NCBI GenBank assembly: GCA_011525685.1
Contig: WYBW01000049.1
Location: forward strand, 40,280 to 104,279
Length of the DNA: 64,000 bases
DNA from: Verrucomicrobiia bacterium
Lineage (GTDB): Bacteria > Verrucomicrobiota > Verrucomicrobiia > Limisphaerales > JADLHS01
Direction of reading: 5' to 3'
The stretch's first letter is position 1; every line of letters begins with the position of its first letter. The notes beneath the pieces were generated by a model that was not told where the DNA came from, ran no database searches, and worked only from the letters and a program-made list of their open reading frames with translations. Below are positions 619-56,863 of the stretch, one piece after another. The position numbers and the translations under genes were made by a program.

Positions 619-722
619 GGAGCGCGGGCTTTAGCCCGCTTCAACGTCCGTAAGGCGAGAGACAATAGTCTTTCATATCTGCTGGCGTTTTGGGAGTTGA
701 AGCGGCGTGAACGCCGCGCCCC
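619..722. repeat. Palindromic repeat element, family G (GGAGCGCGGGCTTyAGCCCGCTTCAAC arms)
   Basis: The left arm at 619-645 is a roughly 75% reverse complement of the right arm at 696-722. A second copy lies at 28994-29104 and shares the internal GACAAT..CTTTCA core. Confidence 0.6.
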
Positions 723-1818
723 GCTCGCACTCGCGGTGGTCGCCGCGCTTACTGCGGCGCTGGCGTTCACCGGCTGCGAGAAGCCCGAGGCCAAAGCCCC
801 CGAGAAAAGTCTGGTGCGCACCGCGGTCGTCGAGCCGGCGGGCAATGGCCGTTCCGACAGCGAGGCGGCCTATCTCGCGGCGGTGAAGTTCGACCGCGAA
901 ACGGATCTCAATTTCAAGGTCGGCGGGATCGTGGTCCTCATTGGACCGGCCGCCAACGCGGATTGGGACGAGGCGACGCCGGTCAAGATCGGGGCGCTGC
1001 TGGCCGAGTTGAAGCAATCGGATTTTGAGAACGCGTTGAGCGCGGCGCGTGCGAAGGCGGACCTGGCCGACAAGACGCGCGAGCGTTTCCGGAAACTCCG
1101 CGAGACGGACGCCATTTCGCAGCAAGAACTCGATGTCGTCGAGGCCGAGTGGCGCACAGCGCAGGCGGCGCTGGATCAGGCGCAGCACAATCTGCGCGAC
1201 TCGCGATTGGTGGCGGACAAGAACGGCGTGATCCTGAGGCGCTACATCAACCGCGGCGTCACGGTTGCACCCGGCCAGCCGGTGCTGCGCTTCGCCGACA
1301 CGAGTCTGATGTCCGTCGAGTTGGGCCTGCCGGATCGGTTGATTGGCAAGGTGACGCCCGGCCAGGAGATTGATGTCGAGATTTCGGCGTTGGAGGGCCT
1401 GAAGCCTTTCAAGGGCACTGTTACGGAAGTCGGCGTGGCGGCGAGTGCTGAAGGCCGATTGTTCCGCGTCGTAATCAAAGTGCCGAATCCGGAAGGGCAG
1501 TTGCGTTCGGGCATGACCGCGCGCATTCGCGTCGGCGACGCGGCCGCGACGCCGGGCACAGTCACCATTCCGCTCTCGGCGCTGGTGACGCTGGTGTCCG
1601 AAGGCGGCTCGCATGGCAACCCGCAAACGCAACTCGGCGTCTTCGTCGTCCAGGACGGCAAAGTGGTGAAGCGCGCGGTGAAGACCGGCGACATCATCAA
1701 GAGTTCCATTCTCGTGACCGAAGGATTGCGGGCGGGGGAACAGGTCGTCACATCGGGAGCCAGTTTTCTTTACGACGGCGCGCCGGTCGAAGTCGCCCCC
1801 GAACTGACCACCAAGTAA
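697..1818 (+). CDS. RND efflux periplasmic adaptor (membrane fusion protein), predicted lipoprotein
   Basis: It has HlyD/MFP-like coiled-coil and beta-barrel segments (QQELDVVEAEWRTAQAALDQAQ, GQPVLRFADTSLMSVELGLPD). From the TTG at 697 the N-terminus reads KRRERRAPLALAVVAALTAALAFTGC, a signal peptide plus lipobox. The start is uncertain: an in-frame ATG at 484 is possible, and the track ORF start at 250 overlaps the trx gene. Confidence 0.8.
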   Translation: MKRRERRAPLALAVVAALTAALAFTGCEKPEAKAPEKSLVRTAVVEPAGNGRSDSEAAYLAAVKFDRETDLNFKVGGIVVLIGPAANADWDEATPVKIGALLAELKQSDFENALSAARAKADLADKTRERFRKLRETDAISQQELDVVEAEWRTAQAALDQAQHNLRDSRLVADKNGVILRRYINRGVTVAPGQPVLRFADTSLMSVELGLPDRLIGKVTPGQEIDVEISALEGLKPFKGTVTEVGVAASAEGRLFRVVIKVPNPEGQLRSGMTARIRVGDAAATPGTVTIPLSALVTLVSEGGSHGNPQTQLGVFVVQDGKVVKRAVKTGDIIKSSILVTEGLRAGEQVVTSGASFLYDGAPVEVAPELTTK

Positions 1819-1846
1819 CGCAGGATAATCCAGGAGAACCATTCCC

Positions 1847-4800
1847 ATGTCAGACCACGTTGAGAAAAAGACCGAGTCCGGTGTGGATGCGACGCCGAGC
1901 ACTTCAACCGTAGCGCAGACCTCCGAGTCTGCTGTATCGCAGGTTTCAAAACCTGCGGGCGCAACGAAGGGAGAAGCCCCCGAAAAATCTCAGCGCGATG
2001 CCGATTTGGAAATCGGCGATACAGCAGGTTTGGAAACCTGCGCTACGAAAAAGCCCGCAGCTCACGTTGAAAACAAGAAGGAGTCCGGTGGCATCGCTCA
2101 GTTCTTTGTCGAGCATCGGGAGGTGAGCTGGCTGGCGCTGATCGCCGTGCTGGTGTGGGGCGTGGTGGCCTACACCAAGCTGGGCCAGCAGGAAGACCCC
2201 ACGATTCCCCAGCGCACCGCGATGCTGGTGACGATCTTCCCCGGCGCGACCGCCTCGAAGGTCGAGGAACTGGTCGCGAAGCCGCTCGAACGCAAGATCA
2301 GCGAGCTGGATTCCATCGAGGAGATCAAGACGACGGTCCGGCCCGGCGTCGTCACGATGAACATCAAACAGCTTCCCGCGCCGAAGCCGACGATCGACCA
2401 GCAGTGGGACAAGGTCCGGTCCAAGATCGCCGAAGTGCAGTTGCCCGACGGCACGCGGCAGCCGTGGCTCAACACGGATTTTGGCAACACGATCACGCTG
2501 CTATATGCGCTGGTCAGCCCGCCAATCACCGAGGCGGAGTGCGTGGCGCGGGCCAACCTGCTGCGGGACCGCCTGGCCGACCTCCGCGCCGGAGCGCCTT
2601 CCACCCATCGCGCCGCCGTGGCGGCCTGGCTGCCCGGCATGGACGCGAAAGCCCTCGAGACGCTCCGCGGCCGGTTCGAGGTGGCAATCCAGGCGGCCGG
2701 TCTCGCCAAAGCCGTGCGCACTACTCAGGGTCACTCGTTCATCCTGGCCGACCTGGAAACCACCGCCAGCCGCGGCGATCTGGAGAAGTTCATCGCCGAG
2801 TTCACCCGAACGTTCACGGGCACCGATCGTGAACTGTATCATCCCGATTTCACCCAGCCGATCGTGTTGATGGGCGATGAAGACCCGTTGCCGCAAATCC
2901 GCGCCACGGCCCCGCCGCGTTACAGCTATCGCACGCTCGAGTTGCTGGCGCGCGATTTCGAGGACGAACTCAAGCAGGTCGAGAGCGTCGGCAAAGTCAC
3001 CAAGGTCGCCATCGTGGAGGAAGCGGTGTATCTGCTTTACTCGGACGCCGACCTGGCCGGCTACGGCCTGACGCCGGAAGGCGTGATGTTCTCGATCAAC
3101 GCGCGCAACGCGGTGATTCCCGGCGGCACAATGCGCACCGAAGGCCGCAATTTCCCCGTGCAGCTTTCCGGCGAATACAAGACCGAGAACGACATGCTCG
3201 GGACGGTGGTGGGCATGGGACGCGGCGGCGCGCCGGTGTATCTGCGCGATGTCTTCGAAGTCCGCCGGATGTATGAGTCGCCCATTTCCTACAAGGTGGA
3301 TGTGCTCGGACGCGACAATGTAGCGCAGGTTTCCAAACCTGCTGTGTCGCCGACTTCCAAGTCGGCAGCGCGTGGGAAGATCGAGCGGTCAGCGGATTTG
3401 GAAATCCGCGATACAGCAGACTTGGAAGTCCGCGCTACGACGGAAAGCTCGCCGCTCGACACGCGCCGCGCCGTCATGGTCGCCGTCGAGATGCGCGAGG
3501 GAAAGATCATCCGCCATTTCAACGAGGACGTGACGAGGTTGGTGGACCGGATGAAGGCGCGCACCCCCGAGGGCATCGAGTTTCGGGTGTTGTCCGACCA
3601 ACCCTCGGCCGTGGATCATCGCATCAAGCACTTCATGAAGTGCTTCATGGAGGCGGTGATCATCGTGATCGTCGTCGCGCTGTTCATGATGGATTGGCGC
3701 TCGGCGCTGGTGCTGGCCACCGCGATTCCCGTGGGCGTCGCCATGACGTTCGTGGGCATGCAGGTGCTGGGCATTCCCCTGCAACAAATCTCCATCGCCG
3801 CGCTCATCATCGCGCTGGGTCTGCTGGTGGACGTGCCGGTGGTCGCCTCCGATGGCATCAACCGCGAGCTGTATCGGAAGGAGCCGCGGTTGCGCGCGGC
3901 CTGGCTGGGGCCGCTGCGTCTGCGGCATCCCATGGTGTTCGGCACCCTGACCTGCGTCTTCTCGTTCCTGCCGCTGCTGATGCTCTACGGCGACAAGGGC
4001 GAGTTCATGAAGAGCATGCCGACGGTGGTGACCATGGCGCTGCTCTCGGCGTTGCTGGTGTCCAACACCTTCCTGCCGCTCATCAGCTACTACGTGCTGC
4101 GCGGGCAGAAAGGGTTCGATGAAGGCGGCGAGGTGCGTTCGTTCTTCCTGTTCGGGCTGGTGGATCGGGCGCTCCTGGCGCTGTTGCCGATCTACCAAAA
4201 GGCCCTGCGGGGCGCGCTCAAGCGACCGTATCTCGTTCTGGGCGTCGCCTACGCGGTGCTGGCGCTGGTCCTCGTCTTTGTGTTCCCGCGATTGGGCAGC
4301 CAGTTCTTCCCGCCGGCCGAGCGCAATCAACTGCTGGTGGACATCGAAACGCCTTCGAGCGATTCGCTGACCAGCACGCGCGCGGCGATGGATCAAGTGG
4401 TAACCATTATCAAGCAGCACGAGGAAGTGGCCAGCGCGGCGGTGTTCTCCGGCGGCACGGCCCCGCGTTTCTATTACAACGTCGAACCCAAGGCACCGGC
4501 CAATTACCTCGGGCAAATTCTCATCAACACGCGCCACGCGGACGAGGTGGACGGCCTGATCGTCAAACTGCGCAAGGAACTGGACTCTTCCGTGCCCGGA
4601 GTGCGCTGCGTCGTCAAGCCGCTCGAGCAAGGTCCGCCCATCAACGAACCGATCCAAATCCGCCTCAGCGGCGAGAACCTGGACAAGCTGCGCCTCCTCG
4701 CCGATCAGGTTGCGACCGAACTGCGCGCGGCGGGCGGCTATCACGTGCATGACGACCTCGGCCTGCGCATGCCCAGTCTCCAGATTGACATTGATCAGGA

Positions 4801-5707
4801 CCGCGCGAATTCACTCGGCTTGAACAACCGGCAGATTGGCGGCGTGGCCCTCTCCTCCTTTGCCGGTTTGCAGGTGACGGAACTGCGCGAAAAGGACCGG
4901 CTCATCCCCGTGTTGGTGCGCGGTCGCATCGAAGACCGCAGCGAGGTGGAGAAGATTCGCGCGCTCTACGCGCCGACGCCCGACGGGAAGAGCGTTCCCT
5001 TCGAGAGCTTCGCCAAGGTGACCGTGCAGCCCGAGTTCGTCCGGATTCCGCACTACAACCAACTTCGCACCGTCACCGTCAAGGCCTACGCGCCGTTCGG
5101 CGAACTGGCGTCGCAGGTGCTCGACCGCGCGCGCCCGGGCCTGGCGAAGATCAAACTCGAACCGGGTTACGAATTGAAGTTCGCCGGCGAGGACGAGGAA
5201 CTGCGCAAGAGCAAGGCGGAGATGATGGTCATCCTGATGGTCTGCCTGGCGCTGATCGTTGGCACGCTGGTGCTGCAATTCAAGTCGGTCGTCAAGGCGG
5301 CGACAGTCATGCTGACAGCGCCGCTGGTGCTCATCGCCTCGATCATCGGCCTCTTTGTCACCAACTCACCCTTCGGGTTCATGGCCATGCTGGCGGTGAT
5401 CAGCCTGATTGGCGTGCTCGTGTGCAACATGATCGTGCTCAGCGAACAGATCGAGCACTCGCGCGAACAGGGGCTGCCGTTGGAGGAGGCGCTGGTGAAG
5501 TCCGGCCTGTCCCGGTTGCGCCCGGTGCTGATGACGGTCCTGGCCGTGTCCGGCGGCCTGGTGCCGCTGTTCTTTGCCGGCGGCGCGCTGTGGCATCCGC
5601 TGACGGCGGTTCACATCTTCGGCCTGCTCTTCGCCCCGGTGCTGACGTTGGGGATGTTGCCGACGATGTACTATGTCTTCTGCGCCAAACTGAAGTTAAT
5701 CAAGTAA
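1847..5707 (+). CDS. RND efflux permease (AcrB/HAE-type inner-membrane pump), 1286 aa, carrying two in-frame repeat insertions
   Basis: Length, twelve hydrophobic segments in a 1+5 / 1+5 arrangement, and AcrB-like periplasmic domains. AGGAGA lies 8 nt upstream of the ATG. The gene sits between adaptor and outer-membrane factor genes. Confidence 0.95.
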   Translation: MSDHVEKKTESGVDATPSTSTVAQTSESAVSQVSKPAGATKGEAPEKSQRDADLEIGDTAGLETCATKKPAAHVENKKESGGIAQFFVEHREVSWLALIAVLVWGVVAYTKLGQQEDPTIPQRTAMLVTIFPGATASKVEELVAKPLERKISELDSIEEIKTTVRPGVVTMNIKQLPAPKPTIDQQWDKVRSKIAEVQLPDGTRQPWLNTDFGNTITLLYALVSPPITEAECVARANLLRDRLADLRAGAPSTHRAAVAAWLPGMDAKALETLRGRFEVAIQAAGLAKAVRTTQGHSFILADLETTASRGDLEKFIAEFTRTFTGTDRELYHPDFTQPIVLMGDEDPLPQIRATAPPRYSYRTLELLARDFEDELKQVESVGKVTKVAIVEEAVYLLYSDADLAGYGLTPEGVMFSINARNAVIPGGTMRTEGRNFPVQLSGEYKTENDMLGTVVGMGRGGAPVYLRDVFEVRRMYESPISYKVDVLGRDNVAQVSKPAVSPTSKSAARGKIERSADLEIRDTADLEVRATTESSPLDTRRAVMVAVEMREGKIIRHFNEDVTRLVDRMKARTPEGIEFRVLSDQPSAVDHRIKHFMKCFMEAVIIVIVVALFMMDWRSALVLATAIPVGVAMTFVGMQVLGIPLQQISIAALIIALGLLVDVPVVASDGINRELYRKEPRLRAAWLGPLRLRHPMVFGTLTCVFSFLPLLMLYGDKGEFMKSMPTVVTMALLSALLVSNTFLPLISYYVLRGQKGFDEGGEVRSFFLFGLVDRALLALLPIYQKALRGALKRPYLVLGVAYAVLALVLVFVFPRLGSQFFPPAERNQLLVDIETPSSDSLTSTRAAMDQVVTIIKQHEEVASAAVFSGGTAPRFYYNVEPKAPANYLGQILINTRHADEVDGLIVKLRKELDSSVPGVRCVVKPLEQGPPINEPIQIRLSGENLDKLRLLADQVATELRAAGGYHVHDDLGLRMPSLQIDIDQDRANSLGLNNRQIGGVALSSFAGLQVTELREKDRLIPVLVRGRIEDRSEVEKIRALYAPTPDGKSVPFESFAKVTVQPEFVRIPHYNQLRTVTVKAYAPFGELASQVLDRARPGLAKIKLEPGYELKFAGEDEELRKSKAEMMVILMVCLALIVGTLVLQFKSVVKAATVMLTAPLVLIASIIGLFVTNSPFGFMAMLAVISLIGVLVCNMIVLSEQIEHSREQGLPLEEALVKSGLSRLRPVLMTVLAVSGGLVPLFFAGGALWHPLTAVHIFGLLFAPVLTLGMLPTMYYVFCAKLKLIK
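1910..2046. repeat. Palindromic repeat element, family A (GTAGCGCAG...CTGCGCTAC termini, GGTTTGGAAACCTG-type hairpins)
   Basis: Terminal inverted repeats GTAGCGCAG / CTGCGCTAC and internal hairpins (GCCGATTTGGAAATCGGC, CAGGTTTGGAAACCTG). It lies inside the RND ORF and is translated as ..VAQTSESAVSQVSKPAG..ADLEIGDTAGLETCAT.. Confidence 0.7.
3320..3438. repeat. Palindromic repeat element, family A, second copy inside the RND pump gene
   Basis: GTAGCGCAGGTTTCCAAACCTGCTG ... CAGCAGACTTGGAAGTCCGCGCTAC. It is translated in frame as NVAQVSKPAVSPTSKSAARGKIERSADLEIRDTADLEVRAT. Confidence 0.7.
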
Positions 5708-5717
5708 TCATCACATT

Positions 5718-7169
5718 ATGCGCTCATCATTTCTGAAACTGTCGGTTGGTTGCGCCGCGCTGGCGCTGGCCGGGTGCGCCGTTGGCCCGAACTACAAACA
5801 ACCCGCGGTGAACACGCCGGCGGCGTTCCGGGGCGCGGCCAACGTTGATTCCACCAACTCGCTCGCCGACCTGCCGTGGTGGGGACTCTTCAAGGATCCG
5901 GCGCTCCAGGACTTGATCCACGTGGCCCTCACCAACAACTACGACCTGCAGATCACCCTCACGCGGGTGGATCAGGCGCGGGCGATTCAAGCGCAGGCGC
6001 GGTCGCAATTCCTGCCGCAAGTAGGCTACGGAGGTGAAGCCAATCGGGGCAAGAACGAGTATCTCGGCCTTCCCGCACCGAACGGCGGCCGAACCATGGA
6101 CAGCTACCTGGCCGGCCTCGGAGCGGTTTGGGAAATTGATCTTTGGGGCCGCGTGCGCCGGATGAGCGAAGCCGCCAAAGCCAACTTCATGGCCACGCAG
6201 GAAGGCCGGCGGGTGGTCATGACCTCGCTGGTCAGCGGCGTCGCCGCAGCCTACTTTGAGTTGCTGGAACTGGACGAGCAACTCGCCATTGCCCAGCGCA
6301 CGCGGGACTCCTACGAGCGGATGCTGAAACTGTTCTCCGACCAACATGCCGGCGGTCTGGCGTCGAAACTTGAGGTGTCCCGGGCCGAACTCGCGCTGCG
6401 TTCGGTTTCGGCCAACATCCCGGAGATTGAGCGCCAGATCGCGCTCAAAGAAAACGAAATCAACACGCTGCTGGGTCGCAACCCCGGCCCTATTGCCCGC
6501 ACCTCGACGCTGCTGGCGCAGGACTTGCCGGTCGAAATCCCGGTCGGTCTGCCGTCGAGTTTGCTGCAGCGCCGGCCCGACATCCGCGCCGCCGAGCAAC
6601 AAGTCCGGATGGCCAACGCGGAAATCGGCGTCGCCACCGCCGATTTCTTCCCGCGCATCGGTCTCACGACCTTTTACGGCGGCACCAGCACCGATCTCGA
6701 CAATCTGTTCAAGAGCGAGGCGAATGTCTGGTCCGCGGCGGCCAGCGCGGCCGGGCCGATCTTTACCGGCGGCCGGTTGACCGCCCACCGCCGGCAAGCC
6801 AAAGCCGCTTGGGAAGAAGCCAAACTGCATTACCAGCAGACCGCCCTCACCGCCTTCCGCGAGGTTTCCGATGCGCTCATCTCCCGCCGCCGGTTCGAAG
6901 AAAGCCGCAGCGAGCAAACGCAGGCCGTTGACGCCGGCCGTCAGGCTGTGGAACTGGCGACGACGCGCTTCAAAGAGGGCAAGGCGAGTTATTACGAGGT
7001 GCTCGAAGCGCAACAGCAACTCTACCCCGCCGAGAACACTCTCTCGCGCCTCGAAGTCGCCCGCCGCCTCGCCGTCATTCAACTCTACAAATCCCTCGGC
7101 GGCGGGTGGGAAACCGAGGCATCCGTGAACCCAGCCGCGCGGTCAGACGCGTCGTCTCAATCCAGGTAA
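5718..7169 (+). CDS. RND efflux outer-membrane factor lipoprotein (NodT/OprM family)
   Basis: Signal peptide with lipobox LALAGCAVGPNYKQP, typical of NodT. Two OEP-like repeats. It lies directly downstream of the pump gene. Confidence 0.9.
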   Translation: MRSSFLKLSVGCAALALAGCAVGPNYKQPAVNTPAAFRGAANVDSTNSLADLPWWGLFKDPALQDLIHVALTNNYDLQITLTRVDQARAIQAQARSQFLPQVGYGGEANRGKNEYLGLPAPNGGRTMDSYLAGLGAVWEIDLWGRVRRMSEAAKANFMATQEGRRVVMTSLVSGVAAAYFELLELDEQLAIAQRTRDSYERMLKLFSDQHAGGLASKLEVSRAELALRSVSANIPEIERQIALKENEINTLLGRNPGPIARTSTLLAQDLPVEIPVGLPSSLLQRRPDIRAAEQQVRMANAEIGVATADFFPRIGLTTFYGGTSTDLDNLFKSEANVWSAAASAAGPIFTGGRLTAHRRQAKAAWEEAKLHYQQTALTAFREVSDALISRRRFEESRSEQTQAVDAGRQAVELATTRFKEGKASYYEVLEAQQQLYPAENTLSRLEVARRLAVIQLYKSLGGGWETEASVNPAARSDASSQSR

Positions 7170-7279
7170 ACCGGAATCAAGCAGCCGTCTTCTTGAAGGG
7201 TTAAGAAACCGTCGTCGGGGATTTGGTTGTTGAGCAGAAATCCATCCCAGCGCGGCGGACGCCGCAAACACAGGTTTTA

Positions 7280-7373
7280 TGGAGTGCGGCGGGAAGCGAA
7301 GCGCCACGCCGCTTTTGGAAAAGGATGACCGGGGGAAAGCGGTGTCGCCGCTGCGCTCTGCCACCGCACTCCA
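7280..7373. repeat. Palindromic repeat element, family B (TGGAGTGCGGCGG ... CCACCGCACTCCA)
   Basis: A 94-bp element with near-perfect terminal inverted repeats. It lies in the intergenic region after the efflux operon. Confidence 0.7.
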
Positions 7374-7554
7374 AGTTTTTGGCGCGGTTCAACGAGTCTC
7401 AGCAACGACTGCTCTTGCGATTGCTCCCGGGCAAACTCCAAGAGTAATTGCGTCGCAAAAAGCGAATCGGACCGTCGGTCGTTCGTTGGTTTCATACAAC
7501 AAGAGGCTGCCAGATCGCGGACAAATAATCCGACCAAACCTGGCTCAAGTTTTT

Positions 7555-7800
7555 GTCCGTTCAACTTTTTAACCCAACCACCCTCCGGGGCCTAATCTCT
7601 GCAAGACAATTCAAAACAGGCTCTTACGGCATTTCAACCTCGTTGGCATGGCCACTGCAAAATGCCTGCTGATAGAAGCGAATAGTAGTTGATGACATGA
7701 ACACGAGCCAAAACAACTCAAGCATCCGATTCGTCGGCCAAGCCGATTTCGCGTCGGAAACCCTGCAAGTCGGACAAACCAGTTCTGGCGGTGTTCACGG
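7555..7800 (+). other. Duplicated copy of the window-start module (upstream box, sigma-54 promoter, leader hairpin, 5' end of the thioredoxin ORF)
   Basis: It aligns by eye to 1-245. GTCCGTTCAACTTwTTAACCC matches at 20/21 positions. TGGCATGGCCACTGCAAAATGCCTGCTGA is identical over 29/29 nt. The flanking and coding parts are about 70% identical. Homology ends just before the Trx active site. Confidence 0.8.
7644..7659 (+). promoter_or_regulatory. Candidate sigma-54 (-24/-12) promoter, second copy
   Basis: The 16-mer TGGCATGGCCACTGCA is identical to 90-105 and has the same spacing to the ATG at 7697. Confidence 0.6.
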
Positions 7801-8422
7801 CGAGCTACCCCCTATGACCATGAAACACACTATGACAACCACGCCTCAAACTCTAACCATTGACATCCTCACGGAAGACGGATCGCGCACGCGGTTCGTG
7901 CAGCCGGACGAGGCCAGCGCGAAAAGAACGTTGCGCCAGTTGGTGTCACCGCGGCTCTTTACTCCGCCCCTGCTTACGTTGGCTTCCGAGCACAGCACGA
8001 GCGCCATTCCCACCCGGACCATTGATGTCATCCTGGCCCACACGGCATCGCCGCCTCCGTTGCCGTTGCCCAGCGGGTGGGTGGATGCGGTTGAAGTCAC
8101 CGACGAGGCGTTGACGCCGCTTGAGACCCTGCGTGCGGCCGCCGCGGCGGAAGGCAGGCATGTGATGCTGGCGGAAGTTCATACACTGGGAGATTGGATG
8201 ATCCGCTTGAAGCTGGAAACCATCCTTCCGGCGACGATCCAGGAAGAGCGCCATCTTTGGAACCATTTTTTGGATTTACCTGCGATTCCGTTTCGTTTGC
8301 AGGCGGGCGGCCTGGGCGCCATCAATCCCGCGAATATCGTGCGCGCGACCGTTTGTCCGCCGGTTGACGGAGCCGCGGAGGCGGCGCTGTCGGCGGATTT
8401 GCTGGAAAGCCTTCGGCCCTGA
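7697..8422 (+). CDS. Uncharacterised protein A, paralog of the 10935-11615 product, with a chimeric 5' end derived from the thioredoxin gene
   Basis: The ORF is intact. Residues 1-33 (MNTSQNNSSIRFVGQADFASETLQVGQ) parallel the Trx N-terminus. An extra base near 7780 then shifts the frame relative to trx. The conserved paralog region starts near MTMKHTMTT (alternative starts at 7814, 7820 and 7832). Confidence 0.6.
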   Translation: MNTSQNNSSIRFVGQADFASETLQVGQTSSGGVHGELPPMTMKHTMTTTPQTLTIDILTEDGSRTRFVQPDEASAKRTLRQLVSPRLFTPPLLTLASEHSTSAIPTRTIDVILAHTASPPPLPLPSGWVDAVEVTDEALTPLETLRAAAAAEGRHVMLAEVHTLGDWMIRLKLETILPATIQEERHLWNHFLDLPAIPFRLQAGGLGAINPANIVRATVCPPVDGAAEAALSADLLESLRP

Positions 8423-8437
8423 AGCTGCGAGGCCAAC

Positions 8438-13759: not shown

Positions 13760-13767
13760 ATCCATTT

Positions 13768-16270: not shown

Positions 16271-18415
16271 ATGTTCGCTGAAGGCCAGCCAGTGCCAGTG
16301 GGAGCAACGTGGACTGGGGACGGGTGGAACTTCGCCTTGTATTCCCGGCACGCGACCGGTGTGACGTTGCTGTTGTACGACGAGAAGAATTTCGTAAAGC
16401 CCGTGGCCGTGCTCAAGCTCGAGCCGCTGCAGAACAGAACCGGACGCATCTGGCATTGCTTCGTTTCGCAATCCACCGCGCCGGGCGCGCGATACTACGC
16501 TTACCGGGTCGAAGGCCCAGCCGGGGTGTTGCACCGGTTCGATGCCCAGAAGGTGTTGCTCGATCCCTTTGCCGAGCAGGTGTTCTTTCCGCCGGATTTT
16601 TCGCGTGCCGCCGCGATGCAGCCGGGCGCGAACGATGGACGTGCGCCGCTCGGTGTGTTGCCCATGAACCCGGAGTCCGAAACGCGAATTCCCGAAACCC
16701 GAAAGAAGCCCGAAATCCGAGCACCGAACCCAACTTCATCTGGCGGTTTGGAAACCTGTTCCCCGGACAGTACTCATAACCCGCCAGTTCGGCATTCGGG
16801 GTACGGATTTCTTTCGGATTTCGGTCCTCGAACTTCGGATTTCAGGTGGAAGCCGGCGGCCACCGGTGAGTTCACCCGGCTACGCCGTCCCTGGCACGAG
16901 ATCGTCGTCTATGAACTGCACGTCAAAGGCTTCACGGCCCGCGCGAACTCCGGCGTGACTCCCGAAAAACGCGGAACGTTCCTGGGCTTGATCGAAAAGA
17001 TTCCGTATCTCAAAGAACTCGGCGTGACGGTCGTCGAGTTGTTGCCGGTGCATCAGTTCGATCCGCAGGAGGGCAATTACTGGGGCTACATGACATTGAG
17101 CTTCTTTGCGCCGCATCAAGGTTACGCAGTGCAGGATGCGGCGGCGGATTTTCGCGAGATGGTGGAGGCGTTTCACGCGGCCGGGATCGAGGTGTGGCTC
17201 GACGTGGTTTACAACCACACGTGCGAAGCCGACCGGGCCGGGCCGACTTATTCGTGGCGCGGGATTGACAACAGCACTTACTACCTGCTCGAACCCGACG
17301 GGCGATACCGCAACGACAGCGGCTGCGGGAACGTGCTGCGTTGCGGGCGCGAGGCCGCGCGCCTGCTGGTCCTGGAGAGCCTGCGGCATTGGGCTGATAT
17401 CGGCGTTGACGGGTTTCGTTTTGACCTGGCCTCCGCTTTGGCGCGCGATGCGCACGGCCAGGTGCTGACGGACGAGGCTCCGATGATCAGCGAGATTACG
17501 GCGCTGGCCATGGCGGGAAAATTCCGGGCCGTGGCCGAGGCGTGGGACATCGGGACGAGTCTGTTGGGCCGGAGTTATCCGGGCTGGCTGTGGGGACAGT
17601 GGAACGGCCAATACCGCGACGACGTGCGCGCCTTTGTTCGCGGCGATCCCGGCAAGGTCGGCGCGCTGATGCGGCGGTTGTACGGCAGTGATGATCTCTT
17701 TCCTGAAGGCCCAGGCGATGTTTACCGGCCGTATCAGAGCGTCAACTTCATCACCGCGCACGACGGCTTTTGTCTCTACGATCTGGTCGCCTACAACCAC
17801 AAGCACAACGAAGCCAACGGCCATAACAACACCGACGGCTGCGACAATAACCTGAGCTGGAACTGCGGTTGGGAAGGCGACGCGGGCGCGCCGGCGGAGG
17901 TGATCACGTTGCGCCGGCAACAAGTGAAGAACTTTTTCTGCCTGCTGATGCTGTCGAACGGCACGCCGATGTTCTGCGCGGGCGACGAGTTTCTGAACAC
18001 GCAAGGCGGCAACAATAACCCGTACAATCAAGACAACGAAACCACGTGGCTGGACTGGTCGTTGCTCGAAAAGAACCGCGACATCTTTCAGTTTTTCCAG
18101 CGGATGATCGCGTTCCGCAAAGCGCACCCGGCCATTGCCAGCGGCCGGTATTGGCGCGAGGCGGTGCGGTGGTACGGAGCAACCGGCCCGGTGGATTTTG
18201 ATTCGCGCTGTCTGGCGTATTGTTTGCACGGCGCGAGCGACCTCTACGTCATGATCAACGCCTTCTGGGAGCCGGTGCGATTCCAAATTCAGCAGCCCGG
18301 CGCTTGGAACTGTTTCGTGGACACCAGCAGCCAGGATTTGGAAACGCGGGCCGTAGCTGGTTTGAATTATGAGGTTGCACCACGATCCGTCGTGGTGCTG
18401 GAGCGCGCAGCATGA
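16271..18415 (+). CDS. glgX: Glycogen debranching enzyme (GlgX/isoamylase-type GH13) with an in-frame repeat insertion
   Basis: N-terminal CBM48-like GATWTGDGWNFALYS. GH13 motifs DVVYNHT, GFRFDLA, EAWD and FITAHDGF. Confidence 0.9.
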   Translation: MFAEGQPVPVGATWTGDGWNFALYSRHATGVTLLLYDEKNFVKPVAVLKLEPLQNRTGRIWHCFVSQSTAPGARYYAYRVEGPAGVLHRFDAQKVLLDPFAEQVFFPPDFSRAAAMQPGANDGRAPLGVLPMNPESETRIPETRKKPEIRAPNPTSSGGLETCSPDSTHNPPVRHSGYGFLSDFGPRTSDFRWKPAATGEFTRLRRPWHEIVVYELHVKGFTARANSGVTPEKRGTFLGLIEKIPYLKELGVTVVELLPVHQFDPQEGNYWGYMTLSFFAPHQGYAVQDAAADFREMVEAFHAAGIEVWLDVVYNHTCEADRAGPTYSWRGIDNSTYYLLEPDGRYRNDSGCGNVLRCGREAARLLVLESLRHWADIGVDGFRFDLASALARDAHGQVLTDEAPMISEITALAMAGKFRAVAEAWDIGTSLLGRSYPGWLWGQWNGQYRDDVRAFVRGDPGKVGALMRRLYGSDDLFPEGPGDVYRPYQSVNFITAHDGFCLYDLVAYNHKHNEANGHNNTDGCDNNLSWNCGWEGDAGAPAEVITLRRQQVKNFFCLLMLSNGTPMFCAGDEFLNTQGGNNNPYNQDNETTWLDWSLLEKNRDIFQFFQRMIAFRKAHPAIASGRYWREAVRWYGATGPVDFDSRCLAYCLHGASDLYVMINAFWEPVRFQIQQPGAWNCFVDTSSQDLETRAVAGLNYEVAPRSVVVLERAA
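16686..16846. repeat. Palindromic repeat element, family C (CCGAAATCCG / CGGATTTCGG arms)
   Basis: CCCGAAACCCGAAAGAAGCCCGAAATCCGAGCACCGAAC versus GTTCGGCATTCGGGGTACGGATTTCTTTCGGATTTCGG. It is translated inside glgX as ETRKKPEIRAPNP..GYGFLSDFGPRTSDFR. Boundaries are approximate. Confidence 0.65.
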
Positions 18416-21757: not shown

Positions 21758-23662
21758 ATGTCCACCATCCTCAACGCCACCGAAGTCACCGTGCGCTACG
21801 GCGAACGGGCGATTCTCGACGCGGCCACGCTCGCGATTGACGAGGGGCAGCGCCTCGGCCTGGTTGGGCGCAACGGCTGCGGGAAGACAACCTTTCTGCG
21901 GCTGCTTGCGGGATTGCAGTCGCCGGATTCCGGCACGATCAGCCGGCGGCGCGAGCTGGCGGTGAGTTATCTCGCGCAGGATTTCATGCTCGATCCTACT
22001 CAGGACGTGCGCGGCAACGTGCGTGCCGGGGCGAAGTACGTGCTGGACCTCATCGCGGAGTTCGAATCGCTGCCGCATGACTCGAAACGGCACGAGGAAC
22101 TGGAGCACCGCATCCAGACGCTTGAAGGCTGGACCGTGGACCAGCGCATCGAAACCGCGCTGTCGCACCTCAACTGCCCGCCCGGCGACCGCGAAATTGC
22201 CACGCTGTCCGGCGGCGAGAAGCGCCGCGTGGCGCTGGCTCGGGCCATTGTTTCGCGCCCCGATTTCCTGATGCTGGACGAGCCCACCAACCATCTCGAC
22301 CCGGAATCCATCGAGTGGGTGGCGGAGTTTTTGGAGAACTTCGGCGGCACGTTTCTCGTGGTGACGCACGACCGGTATTTCTTGGACCGCGTCGTCACCC
22401 GCATGGTCGAGTTGTGCGACGGCAAATTCTGGTGGCACGACGGCAACTACACCGATTACCTCCTGGACAAAGCCGAACGGCAGGAAGCCGACGCGGTGAT
22501 CGAGCACAAGCGCCAGATGTTTCTCAAAAAGGAACTGGAGTGGGTGCGCACCGGTCCGCGGGCCCAACGCAGCAAGCAGAAGAACCGATTCGAGCGTTAC
22601 TACGAGGAAGCGGCAAGGGAGGGCCCGACGGTCGAGGAGGACATGGAACTGGTCATCCCGCCGCCGCCGCAACTGGGCAATCGCACCGTGGAGGTCAACA
22701 ATCTTGGCATTGAACTTGGTGGGCGGAAGTTGTTTTCCGGATTCAATTTCACGTTTGAGAATGGCAAACGCGTCGGGGTCTGCGGGCGCAACGGCCTCGG
22801 CAAAACCACGCTTCTGAAAATCATCATCGGCCGGCTTGCCCCGACGGAAGGCACCGTGAAGACCGGCCAGCTCACGATGTTCAACTACGTGGATCAGTCG
22901 CGCCTGCAAATGAATGACGAGCGGACGGTGCTGGAGGAAGCGTCCGATGGAACGGAATTCGTCCTTTGGGGCGAGTCGCGCATCTCGGTGCGCTCGTATC
23001 TGAAGCGGTTTCTCTTTGCGGACGAGCGCATCACCACGCAGGTGAAGAAACTCAGCGGCGGCGAACGCAGCCGGCTGCTGTTGGCGAAGATTCTCAAGTG
23101 CGGCGGCAACTTCCTCATCCTCGACGAACCGACCAATGACCTCGACCTGCCCACCTTGCGCGTGCTGGAGGAGGCGTTGATTGCGTTCCCGGGTGTGGTG
23201 TGTGTCGTGAGCCATGACCGGTATTTTCTGAATCGCGTTTGCACGGACATTCTCGCCTTCGAGGGCGACGGCAAGATCCATCACAGCGTCGGCGACTACG
23301 ATTATTACCTTGAGAAGAAGCAGCGCGCGGCTGTAGCGGCGTCTCGGCAGAGCGCCGCCATTCTGGCTGTAAATAAATCAGCGGCGCTCTCCCGAGCCGC
23401 CGCTACGAAGACTGCGAAGCCCCGCAAGCTCTCCTTCAAAGAACAGCGAGAGCTGGAAGGCATGGAGGCGCAAATCCTTGCGGTGGAGGAGGAAATCGCC
23501 CGCATCGAGGCCTTGTTCGTCTCCCCCGACTTCCATCGCACCCACGCAACGCAAACCAATCAACTCACCGCCCAACTCGCTGCCGCCAAAGAACAGGCAA
23601 TGCAGCTTTACGCGCGCTGGGAGGAATTGGAGGCAATCAAGACGGCGGCGGAAAAGCCGTAG
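21758..23662 (+). CDS. ABC-F family ATPase (Uup/EttA-like, two ABC domains, no TM domain)
   Basis: Two Walker A motifs (GRNGCGKTT, GRNGLGKTT), two signature motifs (LSGGEKRR, LSGGERSR) and a C-terminal coiled-coil tail. Confidence 0.9.
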   Translation: MSTILNATEVTVRYGERAILDAATLAIDEGQRLGLVGRNGCGKTTFLRLLAGLQSPDSGTISRRRELAVSYLAQDFMLDPTQDVRGNVRAGAKYVLDLIAEFESLPHDSKRHEELEHRIQTLEGWTVDQRIETALSHLNCPPGDREIATLSGGEKRRVALARAIVSRPDFLMLDEPTNHLDPESIEWVAEFLENFGGTFLVVTHDRYFLDRVVTRMVELCDGKFWWHDGNYTDYLLDKAERQEADAVIEHKRQMFLKKELEWVRTGPRAQRSKQKNRFERYYEEAAREGPTVEEDMELVIPPPPQLGNRTVEVNNLGIELGGRKLFSGFNFTFENGKRVGVCGRNGLGKTTLLKIIIGRLAPTEGTVKTGQLTMFNYVDQSRLQMNDERTVLEEASDGTEFVLWGESRISVRSYLKRFLFADERITTQVKKLSGGERSRLLLAKILKCGGNFLILDEPTNDLDLPTLRVLEEALIAFPGVVCVVSHDRYFLNRVCTDILAFEGDGKIHHSVGDYDYYLEKKQRAAVAASRQSAAILAVNKSAALSRAAATKTAKPRKLSFKEQRELEGMEAQILAVEEEIARIEALFVSPDFHRTHATQTNQLTAQLAAAKEQAMQLYARWEELEAIKTAAEKP

Positions 23663-23716: not shown

Positions 23717-26428
23717 GTGTCCGCCACGTTATACGATCTCATTCCGCGCGAGGAGAAAACCGGCAATGATGTGCTGCTGGGGCGGTTTCTCGATTACGTG
23801 GAGGGAAGGCGGCTGCAACTTTATCCCGCCCAGGAATCCGCCATCCTGGAATTGTTCGAGGACAAGAACGTCATCCTGAACACGCCCACCGGCTCGGGCA
23901 AATCGCTCGTAGCCACGGCGCTGCATTTCGCAGCCATCGCCAGGGGCCGGCGCTCCATCTACACCTGTCCGATCAAGGCGCTGGTAAACGAGAAGTTCAT
24001 GGCGCTGTGCCGCGAGTTCGGCCCGGACAACGTCGGCCTCAGTACGGGCGATGCGTCGGTGAACCGCGACGCGCCCATCCTTTGCTGCACGGCGGAGATT
24101 CTCGCGAACATCGCCTTGCGCGAAGGCGCGGCGGCCAATGTGCAGGACGTGGTCATGGATGAATTTCATTACTACGCCGATCGGGAACGTGGCGTGGCTT
24201 GGCAGGTGCCGTTGCTGACGTTGCCGCAAACGCGCTTCCTGCTCATGTCCGCGACGCTGGGCGACACGACATTCTTCGAGGAGGAACTGACACGACTCAA
24301 CGGTCGGCCCACCTCTGCGGTGGCGTCCACGGATAGACCGGTGCCGTTGGAACATGCCTACTCGGAACTGCCGCTGGCCAAAACGCTGGAGAGTCTCGTC
24401 GCCGACGGCAAAGCCCCGGTGTATGTCGTCCACTTCACACAATTGGAAGCCGCGCAAAGCGCGCAGGATTTCACGAGCATCAATGTTTGTTCGCGGGAGG
24501 AGAAAGCCGCCATCGCCAACGCGCTCGAAGGTTTCAAGTTCAGCAGCCCCTACGGGCCGGACATCAAGAAGTGGCTGCGGCACGGCATCGGCCTGCATCA
24601 CGCCGGGCTGCTGCCGAAGTATCGCGTGTTGATCGAGCAACTCGCGCAGAAGGGTTTGCTGAAAGTTGTATGCGGCACGGACACGCTGGGCGTGGGCATC
24701 AACGTGCCGATTCGCACCGTGCTGTTCACACGGTTGTGCAAATTCGACGGGCAGAAGACCGTCATTCTGAGCGCGCGCGATTTTCATCAGATCAGCGGGC
24801 GGGCCGGGCGCAAGGGTTTTGATGATCGCGGCTGGGTCGTGGCCCAGGCGCCGGAGCACGTGATCGAGAACTTGAAGCTGGCGGAGAAAGCGGCGCGCGA
24901 TGGCAAGAAAACCGTGAAGCGCCAGCCGCCGGAAAAGAATTTCGTCAACTGGGACAAGAACACGTTTCTGCGGTTGATCGCCGCGCCGCCCGAACGGCTC
25001 ACGTCGCGTTTCCAAGTCACGCACGGAATGTTGCTGAATGTGTTAAGCCGAAATGGCGATGGTTGCCGGGCGATGCAGCAACTCATCGCGCGTTGTCACG
25101 AGACGCCGCGCCAGAAGCAGGCGCACCTCAAACGCGCGTGGCAGTTGTTCCGCTCGTTGCTGGACCGGAGGATTGTGGAGTTCATAGCCCGCCCTCACCC
25201 TGACCCTCTCCCCCAGGAGAGGGAACAGCCAGGTGCGGCTTCTGATGCTTCGTTGACTGACGTTTCAAATCCCGCGTCCGGTATTACCCAAACGCGGCAA
25301 GCGATTCTCCCTCTCCCCGGGGGAGAGGGCCGGGGTGAGGGCGAGCGCAAGTCACTGGATGGCGGCCGGAAACTTCGCGTGAACGTCGAGCTGCAGGAGG
25401 ATTTCTCCATGGACCAGGCGTTGTCGTTGTATCTGCTCGACACGATTCCACTCGTGGACCCGCAGCAACCCGATTACGCGCTGGTGCTGCTCACGCTCGT
25501 CGAGTCCATTATCGAGGACCCGGACATCATTCTGCGCAAACAACTGGACCGCGTGAAGGACCAGAAAATGGCCGAGATGAAAATGGAGGGCCTTGATTAC
25601 GACCAGCGCATGGAGGAATTGGAGAAGCTCGAATATCCAAAGCCGAACCGGGAGTTCATCTATTCCACGTTCAACGCGTTTGCGGATCGCCATCCGTGGG
25701 TCGGCCAGGAAAACATCCGCCCGAAATCCATCGCGCGGGAGATGTTTGAATCGTTCCGCTCATTTGGCGATTACATCCGCGACTACGAACTGCAACGCGC
25801 GGAGGGCGTTTTGCTCCGGCACTTGAACCGCGTTTACAAAGTGCTCACACAAAATGTTCCGGACGCCGCCAAGAACGATCAAGTGCGCGAGATGGAGCTT
25901 TATCTGGGCGCGATGATCCGGCAGGTGGATTCCAGCTTGCTCGATGAATGGGAGAAAATGCGCGACCCGAATTATCAACGGGCGGAAACAAAGGAGGTGC
26001 GTCCACCCGGCGCGGACGAAGCCGCGCAAGATGTCACGCGCGACACGAAGGCGTTTACGGCGGCGATTCGGAATCGCATCTTTGTTTTCCTGCGCGGGCT
26101 GGTTATCGGTGATTACGAGGCGGCAATTGCAAATCTCAATTCCGCGGCGGATGCCGACGCGCAGCCGTGGACGCCGGATCGTTTGCGCGCCGCGATGCAA
26201 GCTTACGAAGCCGAGCACGATCATCTGTGTCTCGACCCCAACGCGCGGAATGTGCGTCACACCTATGTCGTGCCCGCGGAGGACAAGAAGACCTGGCGCG
26301 TTCAACAAATGCTCGTGGACCCGGAAGGCGACAACGACTGGGTGGCGGAGTTCGAAGTGGACCTGGCGCAATCACGCACCCAAGGCGAACCGTTCCTGCA
26401 ACTGCGGCGCATCGGCAGTCTGGTGTGA
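23717..26428 (+). CDS. Large superfamily-2 DEAH/Ski2-like helicase with a long C-terminal domain, carrying an in-frame repeat insertion
   Basis: Motif [13 protein letters not shown], motif II DEFH, motif III SAT and motif [15 protein letters not shown] start. Confidence 0.85.
25190..25343. repeat. Palindromic repeat element, family D (CGCCCTCACCC..CCCTCTCCCCCAGGAGAGGG / CCCTCTCCCCGGGGGAGAGGG..GGGTGAGGGCG)
   Basis: 34-bp terminal inverted repeats, each itself a hairpin. It is translated inside the helicase as [15 protein letters not shown]...[14 protein letters not shown]. Confidence 0.7.
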
Positions 26429-28993: not shown

Positions 28994-29104
28994 CATGGAG
29001 CGCGGGCTTCAGCCCGCTTCAACTTCGCAAATGGAAGGACACGGAACGATGACAATCTCACCTTTCACTCGCGCGGCGAAGCGGCATGAACGCCGCGCTC
29101 CATG
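28994..29104. repeat. Palindromic repeat element, family G, second copy
   Basis: CATGGAGCGCGGGCTTCAGCCCGCTTCAAC ... GAAGCGGCATGAACGCCGCGCTCCATG. It fills the gap between the L7Ae-like and DEAD-box genes. Confidence 0.65.
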
Positions 29105-33860: not shown

Positions 33861-33880
33861 CCTGGATATTTCATAGACCT

Positions 33881-34021
33881 CTCATTAGCACCGGGCTTCA
33901 GGCCGGTGAGCCGAGGCGAGGATGCGTTGCAGCCGCTTCAGCGGCTTACATAGCGCGTGAAAAGCCGTTGAAACGGCTCATTCCCAGCGCTTCCACCGGG
34001 CTGAAGTCCGGTGCTAATGAG
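33881..34021. repeat. Palindromic repeat element, family F (CTCATTAGCACCGGGCTTCAGGCCGGTG termini)
   Basis: 28-bp terminal inverted repeats with 2-3 mismatches at 33881-33908 and 33994-34021, plus an internal hairpin GCCGTTGAAACGGC. Confidence 0.7.
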
Positions 34022-34164
34022 AACACGCGCACCGAGTGTGAAGTGTTCGGGTGAGGAGGGTTCAATCCGGAGACTCGGCTGTCCGCTTGCGAAGCGGCTT
34101 ACCACCACGACTCGGATGACAGCGTGTCCACTGGCCAAGCTGAATTCTCAGCGGCCTCAGGGGT

Positions 34165-35708: not shown

Positions 35709-35763
35709 GCGTAACGCCGACTTTCCAGTCGGCGACTGGCCGGTTGGAAAACCGGCGTTACCC
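35709..35763. repeat. Short palindromic repeat, family E (TAACGCCGACTTTCCAGTCGGCG...CCGGTTGGAAAACCGGCGTTA)
   Basis: Two adjacent hairpins bounded by TAACGCCG / CGGCGTTA. A related copy is at 56812-56863. Confidence 0.55.
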
Positions 35764-39711: not shown

Positions 39712-39845
39712 GTAGCGCAGGATTCCATCCTGCTGGATCGCGGGTTTCCAACCGGCGAACCGTTGCCAGCGGCGGCGTTTGCGTGCGTTGGGTCGGTCTG
39801 CCGAGTGGAATTCGGCGATACGGCAGGTTGGGATGACTGCGCTAC
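39712..39845. repeat. Palindromic repeat element, family A, intergenic copy
   Basis: GTAGCGCAGGATTCCATCCTGCTG ... GCCGAGTGGAATTCGGCGATACGGCAGGTTGGGATGACTGCGCTAC. Confidence 0.65.
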
Positions 39846-49378: not shown

Positions 49379-49379
49379 C

Positions 49380-52250: not shown

Positions 52251-52251
52251 G

Positions 52252-54058: not shown

Positions 54059-54079
54059 TCTTCGCACGGCCATTTGCGG

Positions 54080-54118
54080 CGGAGCCTGGCTTGACCCGGC
54101 TCCGCCCTTTTCGTTTGC
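54080..54118 (+). terminator. Rho-independent terminator candidate
   Basis: A 9-bp stem GGCGGAGCC / GGCTCCGCC with an 11-nt loop, followed by CTTTTCGTTT. It lies 22 nt after the RRM gene stop. Confidence 0.55.
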
Positions 54119-54981: not shown

Positions 54982-55120
54982 TGAGATGTGGTCCTCCCCG
55001 GTTCAGCGCTTTTCGGCGGTTTGAGCCCCCGCCCCAGCCAGAGCGCTGCCCAATCTGACGCCGTTTCAGGCTTGGTTTTTTTTCATGTCCTTGGGAAGCG
55101 ACATGGATTAAATCATCGGC

Positions 55121-55831: not shown

Positions 55832-55957
55832 CTGGAGACTGAGGGGTTCGGACACCCAAACACCCAAGCAGCCAATGATCCACAGTTGGGCATTTGGATG
55901 CTTGGGTGTTTGGAACCTTGGATTCCCGTGCGCGGGCCTTTAGAGTTTGCATCGCAC

Positions 55958-56758
55958 ATGATTCATCCGACTGCCATCATTCACCCGAAAGCGAGGCTCG
56001 ATGCCAGCGTGCGGGTCGGTCCTTATGCGGTGATTGACGAGGGTGTGGAGGTGGGCGCGCACTGCGTCATCGGGCCACATGTTTACGTGACAGGTTTGAC
56101 CACCATTGGCACGCACAATTGCTTTCACGCCGGCTGCGTGATGGGCGACGCGCCCCAGGACGTGAAATACACCGACGCGCCCACCGGCCTGCGCATCGGC
56201 GATCACAACCGGTTTCGCGAGCACGTCACGGTGCATCGCTCCAGCAAGCCCGGCGAATGGACGGTCATCGGCTCGCACAACTTCCTCATGGCCGGCAGCC
56301 ACGTGGCGCACAACTGCCACCTGGGCGACTACGTGATCCTGGCCAACGGCGCCCTGCTTGGCGGGCACGCGAGTGTGGCTGACGGCGCGTTCATTTCCGG
56401 CCACTGCCTGGTGCACCAATTCACACGGGTGGGGACACTGGCGATCATGCAGGGCGGGGCCGGCGTCAGCAAGGACGTGCCACCCTTCACCATCGCCATG
56501 GGTGTGAACATGATTTGCGGTTTGAACACGGTGGGCCTGCGGCGTGCCGGGCACGCGGCGGAAGCGCGCCTGGAACTGAAACAGCTTTATCACCTTTTGT
56601 TTCGGGGCGATCAAAACCTGCGTCACGCGGTCGCCGCGGCCCGCGAGAAGTTTTTCAGCGCAACGGCCCGGGAGATGATCGAGTTCGTGGCCGCAGCCAA
56701 ACGGGGTGTCTGCGCCGATGTCAGCCGCGTGAATCCGCAGGGTGACGATGCGGGTTGA
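55958..56758 (+). CDS. lpxA: Acyl-ACP--UDP-N-acetylglucosamine O-acyltransferase
   Basis: N-terminal MIHPTAIIHPKARLD, left-handed beta-helix hexapeptide repeats, and a C-terminal helical domain with GLNTVGLRRAG. Confidence 0.9.
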   Translation: MIHPTAIIHPKARLDASVRVGPYAVIDEGVEVGAHCVIGPHVYVTGLTTIGTHNCFHAGCVMGDAPQDVKYTDAPTGLRIGDHNRFREHVTVHRSSKPGEWTVIGSHNFLMAGSHVAHNCHLGDYVILANGALLGGHASVADGAFISGHCLVHQFTRVGTLAIMQGGAGVSKDVPPFTIAMGVNMICGLNTVGLRRAGHAAEARLELKQLYHLLFRGDQNLRHAVAAAREKFFSATAREMIEFVAAAKRGVCADVSRVNPQGDDAG

Positions 56759-56811
56759 GCGGGCGACGGCGAGACCCGGCAATCCGAACCGCAGGCCAGG
56801 CCCTGCGCATC

Positions 56812-56863
56812 GGTAACGCCAGCTTTCCAGTCGGCGCGTGCCGGTGGGAAAGCCTGCGTCATG
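56812..56863. repeat. Short palindromic repeat, family E, second copy
   Basis: GGTAACGCCAGCTTTCCAGTCGGCGCGTGCCGGTGGGAAAGCCTGCGTCATG closely parallels 35709-35763. Confidence 0.5.

Follow-up and report, generated by a model that had tools for sequence, protein, structure and literature searches.

Repetitive extragenic palindromic (REP) elements are imperfect palindromes headed by GTAG that, in Escherichia coli, Pseudomonas fluorescens and Stenotrophomonas, occur as inverted doublets (bacterial interspersed mosaic elements, BIMEs, or hairpin-forming REP doublets, REPINs) together with REP-associated tyrosine transposases (RAYTs) (PMC3733652). Di Nocera et al. (2013) reported the verrucomicrobium Opitutus terrae to be rich in GTAG repeats, and several REP families per genome, REPs inside genes, and different REPs at about the same site in orthologous genes, as in Xanthomonas recB, have already been described (PMC3733652). 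Here, we analyze a family-rich set of short palindromic elements, labelled A to H, in a 64-kb stretch of DNA (G+C about 62%) from a Verrucomicrobiia bacterium (contig WYBW01000049.1, positions 40,280 to 104,279), hereafter the window. These elements are probably REP/REPIN-type non-autonomous repeats of a Verrucomicrobiota genome, moved in trans by a RAYT. The association of repeat and RAYT gene is seen directly in related genomes, and the mode of action is one that we infer by analogy with published work on E. coli RayT and the IS200/IS605 family.

The likeness to the described systems extends to several families per genome, occasional copies in genes, different repeats at about the same site in orthologues and, in related genomes, complete elements on both sides of a RAYT gene, the arrangement known as a REPtron; a high and dispersed copy number is probable as well. 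The elements differ from the described ones in that an A arm joins two unlike hairpins in tandem (GTAGCGC and GTATCGC units), A spacers are unrelated between copies, the RAYT is longer, one insertion carries a 28-bp target duplication, and five of about thirteen window elements lie in frame within genes.

RAYT genes flanked by the repeats

A 23-nt family A pattern, searched in one genome per species, occurred in at least 119 stretches, nearly all from Verrucomicrobiota assemblies, and the proteins of the window likewise have their best matches among proteins labelled Verrucomicrobiota by their sources. The matches often lie as plus/minus pairs 50-200 bp apart, and single assemblies such as CAVVMW01 and DATJTK01 account for 15 or more stretches. 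Perfect A units were also present in assemblies labelled Bifidobacterium, Akkermansia muciniphila, Candidatus Sulfotelmatobacter, Candidatus Acidoferrum and Cloacimonetes (L007, L009, L011, L042, L124 and others); these may be mislabelled or misbinned, or the family may have a wider range.

With E. coli RayT as the query against all open reading frames (ORFs) of 124 A-bearing loci, three matches were obtained. Two are in L105, where the first gene lies between inverted GTAGCACAGGCTTCCAAGCCTGT units and the second has different flanking repeats. The third, in L043, has a perfect A element 45 bp upstream and encodes a protein with 4888 homologues, most of those listed being named "REP element-mobilizing transposase RayT" by JGI. 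The full arrangement is found in all seven of the loci L206-L212, which encode four distinct proteins: complete A elements stand on both sides of the RAYT gene, with units that match those of the window exactly and in some cases form tandem arrays. Three of the four proteins pass the 80-bit cut-off of the NCBIfam RayT model NF047646 (P0391, 81.0 bits; P0419, 84.1 bits; P0439, 81.9 bits). With the Pfam Y1_Tnp model, whose cut-off is 23 bits, P0391 scores 24.1 bits and the protein of a further locus, L198, 36.9 bits, and the HxH (HUH-type) motif MP[DN]HVH aligns with that of E. coli RayT. The A-associated RAYTs, at 240-253 aa, are longer than E. coli RayT (165 aa) and carry some 120 residues before the region covered by the RayT model. 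Two side observations concern the same loci: the identical RAYT P0419 occurs in two gene contexts within one sample (L209 and L210), and tandem arrays lie downstream of the RAYT gene, consisting of four GTAGCGCAGACTTCCAAGTCTGC units in L208 and L210 and of five A doublets in L212.

A G-like doublet, GGAGCGCGGGCCTTCAGGCCCGC...GCGCGCCTGAAGGCGCGCGCTCC, stands on both sides of the RAYT gene in L198, whose product scores 80.1 bits on NF047646. Among 80 metagenome RAYT loci, 65 have the gene between inverted repeats of 16 nt or more, and many of these repeats have a GTAGCGC, GGAGCGC, GGGACCGC or GTGGCGC head followed by a hairpin; F-type and B-type heads were absent from the repeats flanking the 80 genes. 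Because of the flanking evidence from L206-L212 and L198, family A is tied to RAYT directly and G via a close analogue, with B, E, F and H ranking below them, by layout alone.

In the window itself, no Y1 transposase was detected by iterated profile searching from RAYT seeds. By analogy, a RAYT encoded elsewhere in the genome would recognize the hairpin into which single-stranded DNA folds, most probably at the replication fork, cut at its head and copy or move the doublets in trans. Separate families would be served by separate RAYTs, and copies landing in genes would survive where the extra residues are tolerated and the reading frame is kept.

Structure, recurrence and mobility of the elements

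An earlier note on this DNA had listed eleven copies of such elements, and all eleven were verified in place (Table 1). When folded as single-stranded DNA, every one of them is more stable than its dinucleotide shuffles (z from -3.2 to -9.5), with 0 or 1 of 200 shuffles equal. The family A unit pattern GTAGCGCAGNNNTCCNANNCTGC has 8 matches in the window at up to 3 mismatches, compared with 0.17 expected, and 8 of 8 fall within A1, A2 and A3; each arm pattern of family G has 2 matches, compared with 0.00 expected. The inverted-repeat arms measure 48 nt in A1, 38 nt in C, 31 nt in D, 29 nt in F (93% complementary) and 27 nt in G2. The window holds three copies of A, two of G and two of E, and the overall density is high, at about one element per 5 kb. 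Such a density is within the range of REP-rich genomes. Chance similarity was rejected for the repeats. An arrangement as a CRISPR array was rejected likewise: array scans of the window were empty, with no regularly spaced direct repeats separated by unique spacers, and Rfam, tRNA and tandem-repeat scans gave nothing relevant, with no tRNA and no Rfam match.

The note's basic claim of short palindromic elements stands on their coordinates, folding and recurrence above chance, and there is support for its view that they are non-autonomous, REP/MITE-like (MITE standing for miniature inverted-repeat transposable element), without a transposase of their own and unrelated to a CRISPR array. Its list was right for the eleven copies and missed H as well as three smaller repeats. 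Its seven distinct families do recur, with the qualifications that A and E are related and that C is poorly supported as a family. The contrary outcome that it had allowed for, namely that the sequences are unique to the window or their similarity not significant, does not hold for A, B, D, F and G; C is not cleared of it. A candidate for the mobilizing transposase that it had proposed to look for was found for A in the form of a RAYT, together with a RAYT flanked by a G-like doublet.

Inverted doublets able to form a long hairpin, as in REPINs, are present throughout. In an A arm, a GTAGCGC-hairpin is followed by a GT(A/G)TCGC-hairpin, and the other arm is the inverse; in A1, the GTAGCGC and GTATCGC units are followed by a 44-nt spacer and then by both units inverted. 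The heads are GTAGCGC/GTATCGC in A, GTAAC in E, GTAGCGG in H, and GGAGCGC/GGAGTGC in G and B, the general form of G being a GGAGCGC-hairpin followed at a distance by a hairpin-GCGCTCC. The conserved 5' tetranucleotide of REP units (GTAG/GTGG) is therefore present in A and H; E has GTAA, G and B have GGAG, F has TTAG, and D and C do not fit this pattern. The F element begins TTAGCACCGGGCTTCAGCCCGGTG and H begins GTAGCGGCG. E is a short doublet of units resembling the inner unit of A, and its two copies are 92% identical across 24 nt. Among 123 distinct A-type units from the window and the retrieved loci, the head and the TTCCAA loop are constant, and stem substitutions affect both partners of a pair: positions 8-21 pair as AT in 30, CG in 25 and GC in 17, positions 10-19 as GC in 42 and AT in 31, and positions 11-18 as TA in 40 and CG in 30.

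Table 1. Palindromic elements of the window, further inverted repeats, and DUF559 loci bounded by D arms (window coordinates unless a locus is named; z, folding score against shuffles)
Feature	Coordinates	Strand	z	Description
A1	1910..2046	+	-5.9	In frame, near N-terminus of RND pump gene (1847-5707)
A1, full inserted segment	1884..2062	+		179 bp: core plus 26 nt and 16 nt of unique sequence
A2	3320..3438	+	-6.6	In-frame beta-hairpin loop in periplasmic porter domain of RND pump
A3	39712..39845	+	-5.3	Intergenic, between minus-strand YdjM-like gene (39015-39632) and CN-hydrolase gene (39918-40688)
B	7280..7373	+	-4.8	Inverted pair with TGGAGTGCGG head, downstream of OMF gene
C	16686..16846	+	-3.8	In-frame 61-aa insert between CBM48 and catalytic domains of isoamylase
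D	25187..25346	+	-4.0	In-frame insert of about 55 aa splitting DUF3516 of DEAD-box helicase
E1	35709..35763	+	-4.9	Compact inverted doublet of GTAAC-headed hairpins, intergenic between divergent genes
E2	56812..56863	+	-3.6	Degenerate copy, intergenic, its end abutting the ATG of ORF 56861-58117
F	33880..34022	+	-9.5	29-nt arms TCTCATTAGCACCGGGCTTCAGGCCGGTG and two inner hairpins, between convergent rhodanese-domain gene and sulfatase gene
G1	619..722	+	-3.2	GGAGCGCGGGCTTTAGCCCGCTTC ... GAAGCGGCGTGAACGCCGCGCCCC; right arm overlaps HlyD-family gene start
G2	28994..29104	+	-4.4	Intergenic, directly downstream of DeaD helicase gene
H	23333..23406	+		GTAG-headed inverted pair, 26-nt arms, 92% complementary; from local inverted-repeat scan; in-frame linker between second ABC domain and C-terminal domain of ABC-F protein (21758-23662)
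Additional inverted repeat	515-604			15-nt perfect arms, after thioredoxin gene
Additional inverted repeat	35818-35930			GTAG-headed pair at start of RHS-repeat ORF; one 90% match in L114
Additional inverted repeat	55856-55913			20-nt arms, between RadC and LpxA-like genes
D-DUF559 locus	L222 380-1035			PF04480, E = 1e-32 to 1e-36 over the three loci
D-DUF559 locus	L243 2480-2895			As above
D-DUF559 locus	L272 9120-9540			As above

By Pfam scans, the surroundings are an ordinary chromosomal region. Its genes include those for thioredoxin, an HlyD/RND/OMF efflux operon, glycogen phosphorylase, isoamylase, SRP54, ABC-F, the DEAD/DUF3516 helicase, DeaD, sulfatase, GlnD, Lgt, MiaA, HflX, RadC, LpxA-like, MoeA and a T2SS ATPase, and there is no transposase gene among them.

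Presence and absence of the elements vary between orthologous sites, a polymorphism among relatives that the earlier note had suggested checking and that is seen for both A1 and F. A1 is unique to the window, and the orthologous site is empty in L001 and L002. F is missing from the OMF gene of the window and present in that of L002-L004 and L213, where it lies within the signal-peptide coding region (L002 13700-13845; L213 about 13660-13810) and the called protein is 547 aa long, compared with 483 aa in the window. Neither L001 nor L214 has the 690-bp segment (7116-7806) that contains B. B, D, F and G also occur at unrelated sites in other Verrucomicrobiota assemblies, with copies of B in L002, L028, L034, L083, L091 and L100 (blastn-short was among the searches used) and copies of F in L002-L004, L017, L185 and L213. 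Apart from this, the segment that contains B also holds a copy (7555-7784) of window positions 1-230. The two are 77% identical without gaps across the first 213 nt, and a 231-column alignment gives a mean column identity of 88%; the source is the sequence upstream of the thioredoxin gene plus its first ~29 codons, and the copy includes a sigma-54-like TGGCAT-N5-CTGCA.

The periplasmic loop that holds A2 is a hot spot for inserts. In the 1175-aa pump orthologues it reads GRTSDNGPLD without an insert, and most orthologues are insert-free. Among orthologues with 88-94% identical flanking DNA, the same loop holds four different inserts: family A in the window (3309-3449) and L001, family G in inverted orientation in L002-L004 (L002 11257-11380), a (GTCCGAA)5 array in L213 (11257-11338), and another GTAG-headed inverted pair in L214 (11254-11380). 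Many further loop variants exist among 120 pump orthologues. The "SPKSE" inserts of pump orthologues were considered as family C and ruled out, the DNA in L213 being a one-directional (GTCCGAA)5 array.

These data also bear on whether the elements move at all. Positions directly after a gene or between two convergent genes predominate (B, F, G2 and A3), and the hairpins are stable, as might be expected of immobile structural motifs, such as terminators, mRNA stabilizers or protein-binding sites, that are selected by the host and recur by convergence or recombination; such roles have been hypothesized for REPs in other bacteria (PMC3733652). We regard this as very improbable. Presence varies between orthologous sites of close relatives, the same units are found in both orientations, within coding sequence and flanking RAYT genes, and a single A unit, identical across 23 nt, is present 102 times in the retrieved loci.

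Copies inside genes

A1, A2, C, D and H all lie in frame within genes, and the right arm of G1 overlaps a likely gene start, in keeping with the earlier count of four or five copies inside coding sequence. The inserts of A1, A2, C and D are absent from homologues. The RND pump is 1286 aa long in the window and 1175-1176 aa long in most orthologues; its Pfam match is split at A2, which is translated as VAQVSKPAVSPTSKSAA...SADLEIRDTADLEVRAT and, by comparison with MexK, occupies the turn between two strands. The C insert is missing from 118 of 120 isoamylase homologues, the remaining two holding different inserts at the same point, and 40 full-length helicase homologues lack the D insert, aligning to the sequence on both sides of it. 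The surviving in-gene copies occupy one beta-hairpin loop at the protein surface, one variable loop, two linkers between domains and, ahead of the first membrane helix, one N-terminus.

The translated copies could themselves be selected protein modules, with peptides such as ADLEIRDTADLEVRAT being functional and the DNA palindrome incidental. A1 and A2 are indeed read in the same frame and give similar peptides, and P0001 and P0020 retain the A2 peptide. We find this hardly credible, as copies of this DNA lie mostly between genes, one and the same loop is either empty or filled by one of four unrelated inserts in close orthologues, and the inserts are found in loops and linkers rather than in conserved cores. 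Family A as a whole is mainly extragenic, since about 5 of 78 paired A elements (about 6%) sit inside long ORFs rich in G+C at third codon positions. The persistence of in-gene copies would be best explained as a survivor effect, in which the harmless few remain, because the A arms are open in most frames (the left arm is stop-free in two of three, the right arm in all three), the surviving copies keep the frame, and their sites are loops, linkers and termini.

In behaviour, these copies resemble the Rickettsia palindromic elements (RPEs), which are palindromes of similar size often found in frame in intact genes, to which they add a peptide (PMC3733652). The likeness is one of in-frame insertion, taken from descriptions of RPEs rather than from their sequences, and the two differ in that the lineages are unrelated and the family described here is mostly intergenic. 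We know of no association between RPEs and RAYTs.

One element may have contributed a gene start. The likely start of the HlyD-family lipoprotein is TTG 697, within the right arm of G1, which offers the sole in-frame start giving a charged n-region (LKRRERRAP...) ahead of the lipobox, LAFTGC (697-780). Because the orthologues have unrelated N-termini, G1 seems, judging from the sequence, to be the source of both the start codon and the signal peptide's charged part.

Families D and C and other points of misfit

A number of observations weigh against RAYT-driven mobility as the explanation for all of the elements. On the side of the enzyme, the fourth A-flanked protein, P0393, scores 40.5 bits on NF047646 and fails the cut-off, and the first RAYT of L105 falls short of it at 72.9 bits. 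No RAYT gene was found beside B, E, F or H, which resemble the RAYT-linked repeats in layout, or in the retrieved stretches of the close relatives L001-L004, L213 and L214. On the side of the repeats, the A spacers (26-44 nt) are wholly different among copies in sequence and length. Unrelated spacers between arms are unlike classical REPINs. A1, moreover, is bracketed by an imperfect 28-bp target duplication with 5 mismatches (1856-1883 and 2064-2091), identified by alignment with the empty sites, where the blastn breakpoints overlap by 28 bp. This duplication sits 16-26 nt outside the GTAG...CTAC core, and A1 carries 42 nt (26 + 16) of unique co-inserted sequence. To our knowledge, transposition of the IS200/IS605 (Y1) type is not expected to leave target duplications. 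The same set of misfits includes family D, whose arms have no RAYT beside them in 128 IMG/VR loci (120 with the D pattern and 8 with the C pattern) and instead bound a DUF559 gene on both sides in three, and family C, which has a single copy in the window and only weak matches elsewhere, with almost no copies.

Neither the inner flanks of A1 nor the A spacers have copies elsewhere, so they do not belong to any longer conserved element. In other genomes, flanking direct repeats scoring at least 10, some of them other REPs, accompany 10 of 75 paired A elements, compared with 3 of 292 shuffled flank pairs.

In each D arm, CCCTCACCCYGRC precedes the hairpin CCCTCTCCCC..GGGGAGAGGG. Among the Verrucomicrobiota loci, 13-16 carry D arms, as pairs with a total length of 133-158 bp whose interior varies, and more than 120 stretches with D arms are present in IMG/VR. 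C has arms made of roughly five CCGAAAN heptamers each, in inverted arrays (16692-16729 and 16787-16824), and as a repeat family, C is uncertain and has little support. At its centre (16746-16760), GGTTTGGAAACCTG matches the hairpin of family A over 14 nt, which may be a nested remnant or chance. The REP/RAYT explanation does not cover D and C with any confidence.

D and C, and perhaps B and F, could instead be classical MITEs, that is, internally deleted insertion sequences with terminal inverted repeats. Bacterial MITEs such as Correia/NEMIS, ERIC, RUP and Nezha are likewise short and non-coding, with inverted-repeat ends and hairpins, lie near or in genes and are polymorphic between strains. 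They derive from insertion sequences of the DDE type, whose transposases move them and make short target duplications of fixed length. The long arms (27-38 nt), the similar length and variable interior of D copies elsewhere, and the lack of a RAYT beside D all agree with such an origin, which we nonetheless consider distinctly unlikely. No transposase with these arms was seen in the retrieved loci, where the searches covered Y1 and DUF559 proteins only. No short, fixed-length target duplication is visible, that of A1 being 28 bp and imperfect and none being recognizable at the F insertion. In place of plain terminal repeats, the arms have the REP design of a head with a hairpin after it, and wherever a linked enzyme was found, it is a Y1 HUH transposase.

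Another possibility is that D is a separate system, in which a DUF559 (Vsr-like PD-(D/E)XK) endonuclease, rather than a RAYT, is tied to the spread of the hairpins flanking its gene. In L222, L243 and L272, the D arms lie within a few bases of the DUF559 ORF with their CTCACCC extension facing it, and L222 has a complete D element directly upstream. This layout resembles that of REPINs around a RAYT gene, and we found no paper on a link between D arms and DUF559. The arrangement occurs in 3 of 120 D-bearing IMG/VR loci, a biased sample because the loci were chosen for carrying a D arm; DUF559 genes are missing from the window and from the D-carrying Verrucomicrobiota loci, and no mechanism is known. 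On balance, a DUF559 system strikes us as rather unlikely. D can also be compared with the TIR families that flank TIRYT genes and carry a GGGGWSAS motif (Di Nocera et al. 2013, PMC3733652), as its arms contain GGGGAGAG and GGGGTGAG, both of which fit that motif. A difference is that no Y1 gene lies beside D arms in the 128 IMG/VR loci or the Verrucomicrobiota loci, and the match is only a lead because it is short and the D arms are G-rich.

Some of the misfits could be accommodated by a bolder scheme, which we offer as speculation and think unlikely. Verrucomicrobial REPINs may insert by a route other than the scarless single-strand one of IS200/IS605, with some inserts carrying donor flanks and a target duplication of 14-30 bp; other families may target or displace hairpins that already occupy permissive sites; and D may be an undescribed DUF559 "tron". 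Targeting or replacement of resident hairpins would explain how one pump loop came to hold four inserts in orthologues with 88-94% identical flanking DNA.

Returning to RAYT-mediated movement in trans as the preferred explanation, the whole is probably a REP/REPIN-RAYT system in Verrucomicrobiota, a known kind of system; REPs, RAYTs, in-gene repeats, several families per genome and different repeats at one orthologous site are all on record (PMC3733652). For annotation, it matters that genuine proteins are made longer by the repeats, that spurious ORFs arise from them, that they can provide start codons, and that they break metagenome assemblies, most RAYT contigs being 1-3 kb long. The parts most worth following are the hot-spot loop, the long target duplication and the link between D and DUF559. 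For the Verrucomicrobiota, the analysis identifies a specific RAYT clade linked to its own repeats, with clear filled and empty sites, and a single protein loop that has taken four inserts and could be used to study both the target choice of REPINs and the tolerance of a protein to them.

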